A stretch of 64,000 bases of DNA from Eledone cirrhosa (lineage: Eukaryota). Location of the stretch: contig OZ024740.1 in assembly GCA_964016885.1 (NCBI GenBank), forward strand, positions 429,102,001-429,166,000, read 5' to 3'. This document shows, piece after piece, positions 4,198-60,260 of this stretch. Under the pieces are notes generated by a model, which was given only the letters and a program-made list of their open reading frames with translations, was not told the origin of the DNA and searched no databases. The translations under genes and the position numbers were made by a program. Numbering within the stretch: the stretch's first letter is position 1; the number at the start of each line of letters is the position of its first letter.

Positions 4198-4669
4198 ATA
4201 ACAGAACACACTCACTGTTTGGTTGGTTTTCGCTTCTGTATCTTTTATATCTCCATAGTTAATTTATTTGGCAATCAATGCTTATCATTGACTGACCAAC
4301 GGTTAAAAATACAGATATAAATATATATATATATATAGTCTATCAAAGTTCTTTCGTTGCACATCTGCAGCATCATCAGTGGTACTATTATCATGTTCCC
4401 TCCTGTTGTATTGTAATGTTTACGCCCTTTTGGGAAAATGGTGTAAACAATATATATATATATATATATAACATGATAATAGTACCACTGATGATGCTGC
4501 AGATGTGCAACGAAAGAACTTTGATAGACTATATATATATATATATTTATATCTGTATTTTTAACCGTTGGTCAGTCAATGATAAACATTGATTGCCAAA
4601 TAAATTAACTATGGAGATATAAAAGATACAGAAGCGAAAACCAACCAAACAGTGAGTGTGTTCTGTTAT
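4198..4669. repeat. ~200-bp-arm inverted repeat (foldback) with a hammerhead-like motif in each arm
   Basis: 4198-4397 is the near-perfect reverse complement of 4470-4669. CTGATGA at 4488, TGCA-gatg-TGCA stem, CGAAA at 4511. Confidence 0.85.
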
Positions 4670-4680
4670 CATTTCTGGTA

Positions 4681-4799
4681 GAGTTCAAATCCCGCCGGAG
4701 TTAACTTTGCCTTTCATCCTTACGGGGTCGCTAAAATAAAGTACCAGTAATACACTAATATAATTGCTGGCCTTGTGTCAAAAGTAGAAACAATTATTA
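4681..4799 (+). mobile_element. SINE family A, 5'-truncated
   Basis: GAGTTCAAATCCCGCC..TTTGCCTTTCATCCTTACGGGGTCG..AAGTACCAGTAATACACT..GGCCTTGTG..AAGTAGAAACAATT. Confidence 0.85.
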
Positions 4800-5329
4800 C
4801 AACAATATGACCCTCCCCAAGTATAACAATATATATATATATATAAGCTACTGTTTCTACGTCTGCGACTTGGTTTGTAATCTGATGAAAGTTTCAATCT
4901 CGAAATCTTTAAATCATGAGCATAACAGAATAAGTTTTGCTCTTACTATACATGCTATCTATTGGCCAACTCTATTCGTTCGTGTGCAGAATTAACCTGC
5001 AATGTTATTTTCGACACTACAGACTGACAGCAAGCACATGTTCGTATAATGTTCAGTGACATCAACTTCCGTCAACTTCCCACTTTACATTTTGCCAGTC
5101 CATTTTTCTCCATCGTTTCCTGCCGTTCACTCGTCAACGAGATTCTCCGTAAAATATCCAAGTCTAATGTGGGCTAAGAATAGGAGATGGTGTGGGTTGT
5201 CTTGTATAATTATGGCCTCACCATCCTTTAGGATACAGCTTAGTAACTAGAACAATATCAGATGTAGTTAAACAGAACGAGGATCAAATCTTCCTTTGAC
5301 CAATACCTTCTCGCCTGCATTCGGACTGT

Positions 5330-6030
5330 CTCACAACCAAACAGCAACGCCTGCTTAAATACGTTGCTTTTTTCGTCGACCGGCATGAGTGCATATCTTT
5401 GAATTTGTGTCTGTTAACCACATAAACGCTGCTGTAGAGCTACTATCGAGGTGTTGAACTACACCCACTTTTTGTGCACACATTACTGTGGGTTTCACTC
5501 ACCATGCTGCACTGAACAATGTCATTAAAAGAAGACCCTGTACCGCTGGCTACCCATCTCAACTGAAGCCTGTTAGCCTCGATCGTGGCAATGTAGGCAC
5601 TCGGATGGGATTTCTTTCCTATTCAGGGTGGGTGGAATTAGTTAGGTTTCTCAATAGCGATACCACATGTAACACATTATCCAGTGCCAGCCTTGTCACG
5701 GCCTGCATGTATGGTCCTGTAACTCCCGAGGGAGTCGTGGCGGCGCCGTATTGAGATACGATACTTCTAGGGCAGTTTTAAACCTGGCGGAGCCCATCTC
5801 CTCTCCAGGTTTGAATACGACAGATGTCTTCCAGTGAAGGATAGCGAGAGTGAGAGAAAGGAAGTGAGAAAGAGATATAGAGGAAGAATCGATCCAGTAG
5901 TAAACTGGTACATTTTATCGACCTTGAATGGATGAAAGGCAAAGTTAACCTCGGCGGTATTTGAACTCAAGACAGAGACCTGGAACTAACACCACGAAGC
6001 ATTCTATCCGACGTTCTAACGACGCTGCCA
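5330..6030 (-). mobile_element. Composite element: SINE-A-like tRNA head and core fused to an RTE-5'UTR-like body
   Basis: Colinear with 48895-49240 across the head, core, pyrimidine linker and ATTCAAACC.GGAGAGGAGATGGGCT.CGCCAGGTTT..TGCCCTAGAA body. The left boundary is uncertain. Confidence 0.6.
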
Positions 6031-6237
6031 TTTTTTGTCATAAATATAGGAGTTGAATAAATATGAGTCATTAACAACCGGAGTTTATTTCACACCACTT
6101 GCCGTTGAAACCTTTACTATCCTCTAGTTCTGGACTGTCACTTCTCTCCACCAAATTGAGATGAGGACATGAAAAAGGGGCCTCGTGTGGTGGTATAAAC
6201 CAATGTAGCAGATATTATTAGTTGTTCTTTAATGTGC

Positions 6238-6423
6238 ATTGGCAGTATCAATAGAGGGTCAGACGCCATGCTTTGCAGCATAGAGTTACGCCCCTTTATG
6301 ATCTGAGTTCAAATCCCGGCAAGGTTAACTTTGCTTTTCATCCTTACTGGGTCGTTAAAATAAAGTACCAGAAGTACACTGGGATAATTGCTGGCCTTGT
6401 GCCAAATGTAGAAACAATTATTG
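6238..6423 (+). mobile_element. SINE family A
   Basis: Full head ATTGGCAGTATC..TAGAGGGTC through tail GTAGAAACAATTATT. Confidence 0.85.
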
Positions 6424-6563
6424 GTTGTTCTTTGTGGCAACACCTTTGCCTACTTGTCTGTAGTCCGTAGCTGAGATAAACAGTTAAGCTGGGGCTGTGA
6501 TGTTTGCTTTTGTTTTTTGTTTTGTCGCTGTTTTTTATTACTTATTTTATCGATTCTGGTGTT

Positions 6564-57133: not shown

Positions 57134-58090
57134 ACTAGACATGAAAAATGCGCAAGCTCAAAAGTGCCACAGAATGTTATAATAAACCTTCAAAAGTGTG
57201 GGACTAGAGTTGTTGCTAAAAAATATTGTAATCATTATATATCGTACATTCTGTGGCATCCTTTATAAAAATAGCTTAAACCAACGAAGCCTTTATTTTT
57301 ACGCTATTTCACTTAGTTAATTCTTAGAGTATAACATATAAAAATAAATACATCTATGTTTAATGTAATAACAGCTATAAATAATTACGTAATATTATTA
57401 TCATATACTCATAGTAACAAAATAATTGTGTTGAAACTTAATATGATGCTTATATGAACGATCAAATCTATAATGATAATTTCTTAAATATACTAATAGT
57501 AAAATAATTTAGTTATCTATTGTTACATTTTCATAGAACTATAATATTAACAATCGTATTGCATTATCAAATTTTTATCACTACAAACTTTCATATTGGA
57601 ATTACCTTAAGCCACTTATTATTACTTCGCTTTCGTACTTTTACAGCTGTAGATATTGCGTTGTATCTTATATCTAATATCAATATCTCGTGGTAATTTG
57701 CATGAAGTGTAAAATAGGTTTATTAATAACTTTAATATGAAATGTATTATACAGGGCTGCGGAGTCGGCCAAAAATTGACTGGCTCCAACTCAGGATCCG
57801 ATACTCCATTATTTCCTAAATTTCAGCTCCGCAGCTCTGTTATTATATTAATTAATTTATTTTATAGTTGTAAATCATATTTTTATATGTTACACTCTAA
57901 GAATTAACTAAGTGAAATAGCGTAAAAATAAAGGCTTCGTTGGTTTAAGCTATTTTTATAAAGGATGCCACAGAATGTACGATATATAATGATTACAATA
58001 TTTTTTAGCAACAACTCTAGTCCCACACTTTTGAAGGTTTATTATAACATTCTGTGGCACTTTTGAGCTTGCGCATTTTTCATGTCTAGT
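57134..58090. repeat. 213-bp-arm inverted repeat with ~530-bp spacer
   Basis: 57134-57346 versus 57878-58090, with one mismatch seen. Confidence 0.9.
57752..57839. mobile_element. 88-bp MITE, probably hAT-derived
   Basis: TIRs CAGGGCTGCGGAG / CTCCGCAGCTCTG. The 8-bp flanks GTATTATA / TTATTATA match 7 of 8. Confidence 0.65.
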
Positions 58091-58433
58091 ATATATATGT
58101 ATGTATAATTTACCTAATTTTGCTTCTTAGTCAGAGAAATTAACTAAATAAATAATCAATGAAACGGAGATAAATTTGAATTATCAGTATGAAGGAAAAT
58201 GTTTACCGATACAAAAGTTTTATCTGTCTATTCTTGAAACTTATAATTTTATATACTGTAGCTCTGATTAATGATTCTTTATTTAACTCATTCATTGAGC
58301 CACATTGTTGAAGGTGGGCTACACTAATATATGTATCTGTGACTATGTAGAAATATGTGTTTCCTCTGACTTTATATATATATATATATATATATATATA
58401 TATATATATATAGAGAGAGAGAGAGAGAGAGAG

Positions 58434-58620
58434 AAGCTTCTACAGGACTAGAACTGTTTCATTCATGAGAAATCATCAGGAAGCTTCCTGATGATTTCTC
58501 ATGAATGAAACAGTTCTAGTCCTGTAGAAGCTTTTCTATATTAAAACATTTATACTCTGCTATGTATTGAGTACCTTACTTACTGTGGTTACCCCCGATT
58601 GAACCCGGAATAACTTTTAT
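58434..58620. ncRNA. Perfect 100-bp palindrome made of two back-to-back complete type I hammerheads, plus element 3' tail
   Basis: 58434-58533 is symmetric about AAGCTT. Each strand reads aagcttc-CTGATGA-tttctcatgaat-GAAA-cag..ctg-TA-gaagctt. Confidence 0.85.
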
Positions 58621-58947
58621 ATATATATATATATATATATATATATATATATATATATATATATATGTATGTATATATATATATATATGTATGTATATAT
58701 ATATATATATATATATATATATATATATATATATATATATATATATATATATATATATATATATATTCGGTATACAAGGATGCTATTCATTTCTAACACT
58801 GAACACCATATTGCCAATGACAGGGGTGACGGAGTATATTAATAAAGATGAAAATGCGAAGGGACAACCAAAGCAAAAGCACATCTTTTTAGTCCGCTTC
58901 CTTCCAAATAAAATTGCCTCAGAAATGTTACCTGTTAATCAATGTTT

Positions 58948-58998
58948 GCTGTCTGAAGAGATCACGATGTTTATCGTCATTGAAATATATATAACAGC
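58948..58998 (+). ncRNA. Minimal type I hammerhead ribozyme
   Basis: gctgt-CTGAAGA-gatc-acgat/gttt/atcgt-catt-GAAA-tatata-TA-acagc, then AATAAA. Confidence 0.75.
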
Positions 58999-59730
58999 TC
59001 AATAAAGGACTCTAACATCTTCAACTTCGCATGCCGGGGTTAACTTTGCCTTTCATCTTTACGGCGTCGATAAAAAAATTACCAGTAATACACTGGTTAA
59101 TTGCTGGCCTTGTGCCAAAAGTAGAAACAATTATATATATATATATATATGTGTGTGTGTGTGTGTATGTGTGTGTGTTTGTGTATCCATACATGATAAA
59201 CAGGTGAAACTCCGGAGTAACAAGGCTCACCATTTAGCCATGCTTCCCAGGATAAATCGCAAGCCCATCGCCAGTTTTTACAGCAGGAAATGGAGACTGC
59301 AATATATTTTTTGAAGAAGCACCACTACCTCTGGATCCGTTAATAAATTAGTTGTCTAATGTGATGAATTTTAGATTGTGTGACGTAATTCCATGCTATA
59401 TCTATTTCGACGATTTCTATCAAGAGAGGTAGAGAGATAGAGACGGCATAGCTACACATTTCTCCGCCTCTCTTAACTTTTGAAATTCATCAAACTTGTG
59501 AAACCGGTAAAGTTATAAGTTATTGTATATAAACATTTTTAAAGACTTCACTTGCATTTTCAACTGTTTTTCCTATATTTTTACCCGTGTGAGATATATT
59601 TTTAAAAAAAACTTATTTTCGAATACACACACACACACACACACACACACACACACATATATATATATATATATATATATATATATATATATATATATAT
59701 ATATATATATATATATATATATATATATAT

Positions 59731-60260
59731 GTAGATAAATCTACCAAAAGTTTACGGTAGTGTCCAATCCGTATGAAGAACTCAATGTAATCCGGATATC
59801 ATGAAAAAAAGAGATGCATTCAAAAATCACTTTCGGTGAAAGATAAACGGAAAACAGAGTCAAGATAAATTATTAAAAAAAATAATGAATAAACAAAGAA
59901 ACAGTTCCTTATATTAAACAAAAAAGTTCATTATTTTACGATCGTTTCTAGGACATATATGTGTTAGAATTGGTATGCATATTCAAAAGATCTATGTACA
60001 AAATTATACAAACTATCAGAGGGAATATACATACCTTCACATATATATGCTGTCTTCATTATTTCTGAAGACAGCATATATATGTGAAGGTATGTATATT
60101 CCCTCTGATAGTTTGTATAATTTTGTACATAGATCTTTTGAATATGCATACCAATTCTAACACATATATGTCCTAGAAACGATCGTAAAATAATGAACTT
60201 TTTTGTTTAATATAAGGAACTGTTTCTTTGTTTATTCATTATTTTTTTTTAATAATTTAT
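59731..60260. mobile_element. Foldback insertion (arms 59865-60058 / 60066-60260) with hammerhead 60055-60197 (+)
   Basis: 10-bp stem I ttcattattt/aaataatgaa, CTGAAGA, ~100-nt stem II hairpin, GAAA-cgatcg-TA. Confidence 0.85.

Follow-up and report, generated by a model that had tools for sequence, protein, structure and literature searches.

Family A of Penelope-like elements in Eledone cirrhosa: nearly all copies, folded or unfolded, begin at the 5′ edge of the hammerhead motif

Nearly all copies of one hammerhead-bearing family of Eledone cirrhosa (family A), folded head to head or not, begin at the 5′ edge of the ribozyme, most likely because the RNA that is copied starts there. The window (the whole stretch analysed) comprised 64,000 nt of assembly GCA_964016885.1 (contig OZ024740.1, 429,102,001–429,166,000 of the forward strand), and its inverted structures were called by self-BLAST and arm alignments. 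These structures are insertions of the ends of Penelope-like elements (PLEs), placed head to head in (TA)n, with one long, tailed arm and one short arm. This architecture has already been published and is not new. Coordinates are given in Table 1.

Table 1. Folded and unfolded copies and an ORF remnant in the window (offsets in nt from C3 of the hammerhead)
Feature	Positions	Strand	Centre or turn	Details
P1	4198..4669	.	4433, in imperfect hairpin	Head-to-head pair; centre 55 nt upstream of C3 (4488+, 4379−); both arms hold internal (TA)8; outer ends not in (TA)n
P2, family A foldback	8665..8815	.	8722	Short arm, minus, starts −1; long arm, plus, starts −4/−5
P15 + family H	8860..9714	.	9085/9087	Inverted copy starts −11
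Family H direct copies				Truncated copy +110 to tail end; full unit 9282–9714, hammerhead at 9408
P3, family C foldback	26881..27199	.	~27016–27022	U3-type core variant; arm starts −25 and −34
ORF remnant	30031..31570	+		5′-truncated, frameshifted (ORF 30031–31348); then decayed hammerhead-like core at 31478
P4 foldback	32028..32458	.	32263	Centre 41 nt upstream of U3-A8 minimal hammerhead (32304+, 32223−)
Family A unfolded copy	33194..33399	+		TATAAATA at 33233–33240; stem I 5′ strand 33262–33267, C3 33268; predicted cut after ~33307; tail to ~33393
P5, family E foldback	33666..33878	.	33819–33826	Long arm starts −5 (stem I first base), short arm +10 (loop II)
Family G copy	33923..34548	−	34503–34513	Unit ~525 nt; hammerhead-like core 34045; inversion junction
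P7 foldback	34993..35183	.	35128	Arms: stem II 3′ part, GAAA, 6-bp stem III, GUC; no core
P8, family G foldback	51750..52487	.	52308–52314 (−427/−444)	Long arm runs past core 51873
Family E unfolded copy	54137..54296	+		Core 54142 (U4A)
Family A fragment	55343..55385	−		Starts at U4 of core, ends just past stem I; identical junction present in run X1
P13, family A foldback	58432..58617	.	58483	Turn on AGCT palindrome at stem I first bases; short arm is ribozyme alone, tail on long arm
Family C unfolded copy	59446..59615	+		Sister of P3
P14, family D foldback	59731..60257	.	60058–60062	CTTCA microhomology; long arm starts +1, short arm −11; hammerhead call weak, GAAA absent in both copies
Family D unfolded copy	60557..60920	−		Core-like heptamer 60891

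An initial annotation had described head-to-head inverted structures in this DNA, and eight of them (P1–P5, P7, P13, and P14) were confirmed, with arms 83–100% alike. Not counting P6 (34779) and P10 (53101), which are centred on (TA)n, the window holds 15 inverted junctions. Nine turn inside a hammerhead motif or at most 60 nt upstream of one; five of these motif assignments are firm, three (P1, P3, P7) are plausible, and one is weak. Two junctions, both of family G, turn ~440 nt from their motif, and four have no assignable motif (P9 at 52758, P11 at 54433, P12 at 54625, and P16 at 57135–58089). The claim that the insertions turn at or just upstream of the ribozyme therefore stands for nine junctions, but not for the family G pair or the four without a motif. 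The earlier list had also missed P15, which fits, had omitted the family G counter-examples, and had placed the fold of P1 at 4470 instead of 4433. Its statement that most structures abut (TA)n on both sides was borne out: in nine of the 12 checked, (TA)n adjoins both outer ends, either directly or across a few bases or a short (CT)n/(GA)n tract. In P11, (TA)n is confined to one side, in P1 it adjoins neither, and P3 carries (ACAT)n at one end. A target duplication would be hidden in such repeats. A long arm with the tail and a short arm were seen for P2, P3, P5, P7, P13, P14, and P15. The long arm of P2 has lost stems II–III by internal deletion, and a 30-nt hairpin insert separates the arms of P3.

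When mapped on sister copies, the more upstream arm starts at ~−5 (P2), −6 (P13), −5 (P5), −11 (P14), and −34 (P3) relative to C3. P4 and P1 have no sister copy, and their fold centres lie at −41 and −55. P7, which has neither core nor sister copy, appears to turn in or beside stem II. The microhomologies claimed for P13 (AGCT, against the sister at 33262) and P14 (CTTCA, against that at 60885) were found as described. Such turns might result from ordinary 5′ truncation of short copies whose ribozyme happens to lie near the 3′ end, local palindromes (AGCT, TTAA, AT-rich patches) providing the microhomology. The turn of P13 on a 4-nt palindrome would fit this, as would motifs that are decayed and called by eye. 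When the 11 junctions with an assigned motif were considered (P9, P11, P12, and P16 being left out), the placing of nine within 60 nt had P = 1.7e-4 under memoryless truncation with a mean of 200 nt, and P = 0.015 with a mean of 100 nt. Against truncation, the turns in the window follow the motif although it lies 100–340 nt from the 3′ end, depending on the family.

The read depth of family A, the one family of the window that was followed beyond it, was determined in four independent public runs or studies (X1, X3, X4, X13); in runs X8–X12, word sharing was low or absent. All four showed a 13- to >100-fold cliff at the 5′ edge of the motif, an edge blurred by ~20 nt (the aligner clips at divergent bases 33272–33282). 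In X13, with both mate directions, the depth was 27 at 33238–48, 80 at 33249–59, 862 at 33260–70, and 4941 at 33293–303. Upstream depth relative to the peak was 0.5% (X13), 1.1% (X4), 7.7% (X3), and 0/813 (X1). Between 92% and 100% of the depth is gone within ~30 nt, after no net loss across the preceding 100 nt. This argues against ordinary truncation, which we consider quite unlikely; it would suit the junctions of family T, a PLE-type family of another animal, whose distribution is broad and decaying over ~360 nt with a mild excess only and no cliff.

Loose ends before 33265 were drawn from 222 and 218 contigs and agreed at 0.42–0.43; hence, the flanks are mixed and hide no common upstream sequence. 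This bears on the idea that family A and its kin are short non-autonomous elements that began at the ribozyme from the outset, either in the master copy or in an RNA that had been spliced or processed (for instance, at a 3′ splice site at helix I). In families A and E, stem I is preceded by an AG, directly after which both P13 and P2 could be taken to begin, and the Penelope intron of D. virilis ends at helix I (PMC4209133). On the other hand, the loose ends share no upstream exon (agreement 0.42–0.51), a minority of family A copies run on into one common genomic upstream sequence (X3 records 12 and 13), and families D and I lack the AG. We regard this origin as unlikely. Since the AG is absent in D, I, and J, we rejected the idea that helix I holds a splice acceptor in all families.

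Further loose ends of family A, at 33310–21 and 33391–93, mark two 3′ start zones, and the depth of the ribozyme was 1.3–2.5 times that of the tail, a ratio that a mixture of long and short arms would predict. The 5′ ends lie ~45 nt upstream of the predicted cut, not at the cut site. Run-off at the cut site was rejected for this family: no ‘before’ loose end occurred at 33307–33312 among the 24 rows listed of 419, and depth did not rise downstream.

Strand-switch joints were present in the raw reads of family A. Of the 15 joints listed, 11 change strand, each with one of its sides at 33265–33285. At least 356 raw Illumina reads in eight strand-switch joint rows, along with contigs of other studies, carry family A foldbacks. 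Taken with the depth cliff, these joints indicate that the family A foldbacks are not an assembly artefact. Sequencing or assembly chimeras would be in keeping with the arms of P6 and P11, which are 100% identical outside microsatellites, but the other arms differ by substitutions and indels; chimeras are refuted for family A by the raw reads and are hardly credible in general. In family A, a position that had been presented as a trait of foldbacks delimits nearly every copy at its 5′ end. The junctions vary among family A copies (P2, P13, 55385, X1 loose end); with unequal arms and ends that are not fixed, a MITE or foldback DNA transposon was rejected.

Descriptor matches point to type I minimal hammerheads in families A, E, H, and C and in P4. 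The motif is decayed in D, G, and P1 and incomplete in P7, and P2 and P5 were assigned through intact sister copies. Several motifs in the window are decayed and were called by eye. A blind minimal descriptor (without stem I) matched near three of the 15 turns only (P4, P13, P15); it matches at 3% of unmasked positions, gave 17 real matches compared with 3–12 in eight Markov controls, and, being noisy, was not taken as proof. Rfam gave no hammerhead at E ≤ 1 in the whole window, where only miRNA-like matches on palindromes and microsatellites appeared, and none for family A alone; family H matched Hammerhead_HH9 (E 0.0063, under the gathering score). The family A motif had no match among metagenome contigs. 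The folds of seven intact motif segments are no more stable than those of shuffled sequences (z −0.77 to +0.79), and an eighth, the P7 junction segment, gave z −1.46. Stem III is palindromic in P3, P4, and H and has 4–6 bp in A, E, and P7.

Stalling of the reverse transcriptase (RT) at the ribozyme fold, as suggested by the initial annotation, was not upheld as a general mechanism. The turns lie on the 5′ side, so that the RT would already have unwound the motif before reaching them; the motifs fold no better than shuffles; family T has no cliff; and the offsets vary by family (−5 to −55, and ~−440). The hammerhead might still stop the RT if a protein-stabilised or dimeric fold held the 5′ strand of stem I paired to a second RNA, in which case the paired stem I would end both cDNAs, and the two-fold axis would be where they join. 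In its favour, P2 and P13 (family A) and P5 (family E) turn right where stem I begins; also in keeping with it are the palindromic stem III of P3, P4, and H, described as a dimer feature (PMC4209133), the predicted protein dimer and protein-assisted ribozyme of PMC11167929, and a mild excess of family T arm starts at −21 to −58 (7/19, crude Fisher P 0.029). Yet the monomer folds are unstable, the motif does not extend to offsets of −34 to −55, read-through occurs in family G and in 15 of the 33 direct arms of family T, and ribozyme mutants left insertion size unaltered in vitro (PMC11167929). We judge such a stop distinctly unlikely. A more specific version is very doubtful: the hammerhead would work without cutting, two template RNAs pairing through a palindromic ribozyme dimer, each copied by one subunit of a protein dimer from opposite strands of a symmetric (TA)n target, and the cDNAs meeting and joining at the ribozyme. 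If true, the fold point would be the trace left in the genome by a transposition complex with two-fold symmetry, and the retention of weak, dimer-dependent ribozymes by PLEs would be explained.

We lean towards two-strand priming, run-off of the cDNAs at the 5′ end of the RNA, which would lie slightly upstream of the ribozyme, and joining by microhomology. A PLE origin, truncated pseudo-LTRs placed head to head, and microhomology junctions, all proposed earlier, are supported by the present data, as is priming on both target strands, since the arm geometry needs two priming events. The enzymatic steps, modelled on published PLE work, would be as follows. The PLE endonuclease would cut both strands of the (TA)n target, and each target 3′ end would prime reverse transcription on the element RNA, one cDNA starting at a far site (the tail end) and the other at a near site just behind the hammerhead, giving a long and a short arm. 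The RNA 5′ end would, in several families, lie shortly before the hammerhead, at a distance that varies with the family; both cDNAs, begun internally 50–330 nt from that end, would run off it or be trimmed slightly, and would be joined head to head through a few bases of microhomology. The ribozyme would mark the RNA 5′ end, neither cutting there nor blocking the RT, and we infer that the cliff of family A is the transcription start. In LINE-1 twin priming, two target-strand primers and a microhomology join also yield an inversion, but its arms cover different parts of one RNA. Both arms here mostly cover the same part; hence, two templates or repeated copying are needed.

The other route put forward earlier, a single priming, after which the cDNA snaps back and serves as template for the second strand, fits four of the seven sister-mapped window pairs (P2, P3, P5, P13) and 8 of 17 family T pairs, and self-priming has been proposed for head-to-head palindromes of Adineta PLEs (PMC3846280). 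In the other three window pairs (P8, P14, P15), and by at least 10 nt in 9 of the 17 family T pairs, some with non-overlapping arms, the tail-less arm extends further 5′ than the tail-bearing arm. Its extra sequence could not have been copied from the first cDNA, so that snap-back is excluded there. As the sole route it is refuted, and as the general one we find it improbable.

For run-off, two of the six families with an unfolded sister have a TATA-like box at the expected distance: TATAAATA at −35 in family A, ~30 nt upstream of the copy start, and in family H a box at −46, the inverted arm there starting at −11. By the TATA spacing that we assume, the former would put the family A start near −5. 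Such boxes are absent in C, D, E, and G; they were noticed after the fact, and their background is 0.3–1.1% per 5-nt window. The Penelope promoter of D. virilis is TATA-less and internal, and its 75-nt intron begins 46 nt past the start (PMC2377424), which with the intron end at helix I places the ribozyme near the RNA 5′ end there too. Run-off is opposed by family G, whose copies (P8 and the inversion at 34503–34513) read through the hammerhead-like motif and turn ~430–460 nt upstream, 20–50 nt downstream of the predicted cut of the previous unit, and by family T, in which 15 of 33 direct arms continue beyond C3 by >60 nt and the starts of inverted arms are scattered between +109 and −250.

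The ORF remnant encodes RT-like (YRDDG) and GIY-YIG-like motifs, which we take to be those of PLEs. It had no significant match in Pfam, and its C-terminal piece had none in PDB sequences or in a protein database searched for longer proteins. No homology between the remnant and the folded families was found in the window, and none of the folded families could be tied to an RT ORF. Partial tandems occur in family H (9087–9714) and family G (52275 and 34447); no tandem array of two or more units, each with a complete hammerhead, was found among these families in the window.

The insertion units of EN+ PLEs (Craig et al. 2021, PMC8557442; Adineta vaga, PMC3846280) likewise carry a truncated copy in inverse orientation that is attached at the 5′ end, a palindromic or microhomology junction, a tail at one end, partial tandems (here P15 with family H), and microsatellite targets. 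Tails are ~35–135 nt here and 30–40 nt in the published units. In Adineta, a palindrome stands at the 5′ end of the 190–220-bp pLTR (PMC3846280); the published passages give no junction place relative to the hammerhead. The minimal type I hammerheads of PLE pseudo-LTRs (Cervera and De la Pena 2014, PMC4209133) share the short helix I, the extra base before stem II, the palindromic stem III, the U3-A8 variant, and opposite-strand motif pairs. Those pairs are 100–700 bp apart, whereas the predicted cores here face away at ~6–110 bp, and the 4–6-bp stem III of A, E, and P7 differs from theirs. In vitro, the Anolis Poseidon PLE protein nicks and extends both strands, begins synthesis at two positions within the RNA, and works on uncleaved template (Frangieh et al. 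2024, PMC11167929); the insertions here have an AT-rich target too and would share with it the priming of both strands, two internal RT starts, and an uncleaved ribozyme in the template. That work defines the 3′ ends, and in its text the 5′ end and the head-to-head join are unmapped. Animal non-LTR retrozymes (PMC7229834; bioRxiv 10.64898/2026.07.22.740005) are also short non-coding hammerhead units tied to PLEs, and families G (~525 nt) and H (~430 nt) form retrozyme-like partial tandems. Unlike retrozymes, the copies here are mostly dispersed head-to-head pairs, not tandem arrays, and family A ends off the cut site.

In a literature search that took in few subscription papers, we found no PLE inversion junctions mapped to the hammerhead; passages of PMC7229834 and PMC12910113 were silent on junctions. 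The new detail is that family A copies start at the ribozyme edge; genomic coverage in Anolis (PMC11167929, Fig. S2) may bear on its novelty. How tandem and inverted PLE insertions form and what PLE hammerheads do are stated open questions (PMC8557442). A sharp 5′ boundary away from the cut site, together with the two-priming geometry, offers a genomic readout of the cDNA end and of cDNA joining, and makes RNA start versus ribozyme block directly testable. This would also account for the prevalence, among minimal hammerheads in genomes, of solo motifs and of pairs that face away from each other.

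Self-comparison of the window revealed 17 inverted (head-to-head) junctions. Two structures, P6 and P10, were centred on (TA)n and were set aside, leaving 15. Nine of these turned inside the hammerhead-like core or at most 60 nt upstream of it. The initial annotation had claimed that foldbacks (one long, tail-bearing arm and one short arm) turn at or just upstream of the ribozyme core. This rule holds for the nine, but two junctions of family G, a Penelope-like element (PLE) end-type repeat, read past the core and turned at about -430 to -460, and four (P9, P11, P12, P16) had no assignable hammerhead motif. 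The structures it listed do exist, although P15 and the counter-examples were overlooked and P1 was misplaced by ~37 nt. Its junction microhomologies were correct, and (TA)n adjoined both sides in 9 of 12 structures examined, as it had said for most.

Inverted structures and other features of the window. Turns are given as distances from C3, the reference base of the hammerhead core, for the arm that reaches further upstream (negative, upstream).
Feature	Coordinates	Turn (nt)	Basis or character
P2 (family A)		about -5	mapped on unfolded sister copy
P5 (family E)		-5	mapped on unfolded sister copy
P13 (family A)	58413-58434 ((CT)n run at short-arm end)	-6	mapped on unfolded sister copy
P14 (family D)		-11	mapped on unfolded sister copy
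P15 (family H)		-11	mapped on unfolded sister copy
P3 (family C)		-34	mapped on unfolded sister copy
P4		-41	fold centre
P1		-55	fold centre
P7		at stem II	inferred
P8 (family G)	52488-52537 ((CT)n run at short-arm end)		
Family G copies	51750-52487; 33923-34548		each one ~525-nt unit plus 50-65 nt of preceding unit
P6	34547-35038 (34779)		inverted duplication, (TA)n at centre
P10	53023-53180 (53101)		inverted duplication, (TA)n at centre
P11	54375-54491		perfect 116-nt palindrome
P12	54593-54657		65-nt hairpin
P16	57135-58089		212-nt inverted repeats, 99.5% alike, 530-nt spacer
Hammerhead-like motifs in unfolded short inserts	8536+; 29042-; 33504+; 35393+; 58953+; ~60405-		
ORF remnant	30031-31348		frameshifted; RT-like and GIY-YIG-like motifs
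Simple-repeat and minisatellite arrays	9950-24900; 39440-42160; 42870-44600; 46000-48350		long; yield spurious open frames
SINE-like repeat, ~10 copies	3478-3620; 4672-4800; 6234-6422; 36899-37073; 42194-42398; 46755-46905; 48528-48715; 51053-51190; 56452-56628; 59030-59131		

For the 11 motif-assigned junctions (the four unassigned being left out), nine turns within 60 nt had P = 1.7e-4 under memoryless truncation with a mean of 200 nt, and P = 0.015 with a mean of 100 nt. We regard plain truncation with local palindromes as quite improbable.

A three-stem descriptor found complete type I hammerheads in families A, E, H and C and in P4. Among them were U3-A8 cores and a palindromic stem III, both of which have been described in hammerheads of PLEs (PMC4209133). 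Several low-scoring matches of the same scan were taken as chance. Rfam detected no hammerhead in the entire window, and none in family A; family H gave a sub-threshold HH9 match (E 0.0063). A blind minimal descriptor gave 17 matches in the real window versus 3-12 in controls, and matched near 3 of the 15 turns (background 3%). The predicted motif is rated firm for P2, P4, P5, P13 and P15, plausible for P1, P3 and P7, and weak for P14. Several of the unfolded inserts with such motifs start 50-95 nt upstream of the core, adjoining (TA)n, and copies at 35298 and 28543 share an identical start point.

The window consists of AT-rich animal DNA with a GC of 0.38 and many (TA)n tracts. The motifs of its ORF remnant are presumably Penelope-type; Pfam, PDB-sequence and protein searches gave no confirmation of this. 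Publications on PLEs describe truncated copies in inverted orientation, palindromic junctions joined head to head, tails on one side only and a bias for (TA)n (PMC8557442; PMC3846280), as well as hammerhead pairs on opposite strands (PMC4209133). The inverted structures are real and PLE-made, and their architecture is already known. No publication placing a PLE inversion junction at a hammerhead was found in a literature covered in part.

Family A was tested on four public sequencing runs from four studies (15 runs listed), with the unfolded copy 33095-33399 as reference. Raw-read depth in run X13 climbed from 27 at 33238-48 to 862 at 33260-70 and 4941 at 33293-303, and the upstream/peak ratio was 0.5% (X13), 1.1% (X4), 7.7% (X3) and 0 (X1); clipping by the aligner at 33272-33282 smears this edge by ~20 nt. 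Loose ends before 33265 were heterogeneous in sequence (agreement 0.42-0.43 across 222 and 218 contigs), and a minority of contigs ran on into identical upstream DNA. The strand switched in 11 of the 15 joints listed, all 11 with one side at 33265-33285. Eight such joints among those listed were backed by 356 X13 reads, which stem from few loci, because each joint had 1-4 start places. One X1 loose end was an additional, distinct foldback junction. The 3' ends at ~33310-21 and 33391-93 are the two start zones. From the depth cliff and the joints it follows that foldbacks occur in independent raw reads and that the ribozyme 5' edge is the family A boundary. This edge bounds nearly all copies, foldback or unfolded, so that the boundary is not, contrary to the initial annotation, a property of foldbacks.

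As a control, metagenome contigs were scanned for generic minimal hammerheads (at least 102 loci), and 40 loci of one PLE-type family of another animal, family T, were chosen among the matches listed; seven were dropped (five clipped by contig ends, one tandem array, one duplicate). Most 3' ends among these matches lay near +105 or +137, as a rule one for each arm, which is the classical tail. Direct-arm 5' ends fell at 0 to -60 in 18 of 33, at -61 to -120 in five, at -121 to -180 in four and beyond in six, of which five were at -241 to -248. Starts of the 19 inverted arms ranged between +109 and -250, with seven in the interval -21 to -58 (crude Fisher P 0.029). Upstream of the core, ends were mildly in excess, and others piled up at a distant boundary, with no cliff at the ribozyme in these 33 direct and 19 inverted arms among the matches listed. 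The positional rule is family-specific: strong for family A, plausible in several other window families, weak for family T and absent for family G. Tandem arrays of a 54-nt unit, little beyond one minimal family T hammerhead, occupy L015:1-314 and L046:1-180.

The initial annotation had proposed priming on both target strands or cDNA snap-back. A snap-back copy would be limited to the content of the first, tail-bearing cDNA. The tail-less arm extended further 5' than the tail-bearing arm in P8, P14 and P15 (3 of 7 sister-mapped pairs), and in 9 of the 17 family T pairs with one tail arm among the matches listed, the direct arm there being chosen for containing the core. This geometry requires two priming events and contradicts snap-back in those pairs; even as a contributory route, snap-back is very improbable. 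For an Anolis element, two priming events have been shown in vitro, with both strands extended and two internal start sites used on uncleaved RNA (PMC11167929).

RT stalling at the fold, as annotated, would put ends 3' of the motif; the turns lie behind it, on the far (5') side, so stalling is disfavoured. A block by the ribozyme or a ribozyme dimer is decidedly improbable, given that seven intact motif segments were no more stable than shuffles (z -0.77 to +0.79); the P7 junction segment gave z -1.46.

Several structures bore further peculiarities. P6 duplicates 46 nt of the P7 tail and a 70-nt spacer at 100% identity, and its start coincides with the end of the family G inversion; P10 duplicates 20 nt. 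Both may be target-flank DNA duplicated at insertion, or assembly artefacts, and 120 nt of P1 past an internal (TA)8 may be of the same kind. In the P1 right arm (4449-4469), ~20 nt of element sequence is swapped for an equal-length (TA)10. In P13 and P8, the short arm finishes with a (CT)n run, then (AT)n, the run extending from the element's CTCTAT or TTCTAT patch; priming by microhomology with slippage is possible. Neither P11 nor P12 has an assignable ribozyme, and the P11 flank resembles the region upstream of the ~60405 motif. Both family G copies turn 20-50 nt downstream of the site at which the preceding unit is predicted to be cut, as though cleavage had generated the RNA 5' end.

A family-specific 5' cliff would be most simply explained by a template end. 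Family A carries a TATAAATA box at -35. With a TATA-to-start spacing of ~30 nt, transcription would begin near -5. A TATA-like box occurs at -46 in family H; at the corresponding distance, none is present in families C, D, E and G. In D. virilis Penelope, the promoter is TATA-less (PMC2377424), and between the start and helix I lie 46 nt and a 75-nt intron (PMC2377424; PMC4209133). That the template was a short or processed master RNA is unlikely. We somewhat favour run-off at the RNA start combined with twin priming; this and the other readings weighed here are mutually compatible, not exclusive. Most likely, the positional rule would mark the template's 5' end rather than a ribozyme roadblock.
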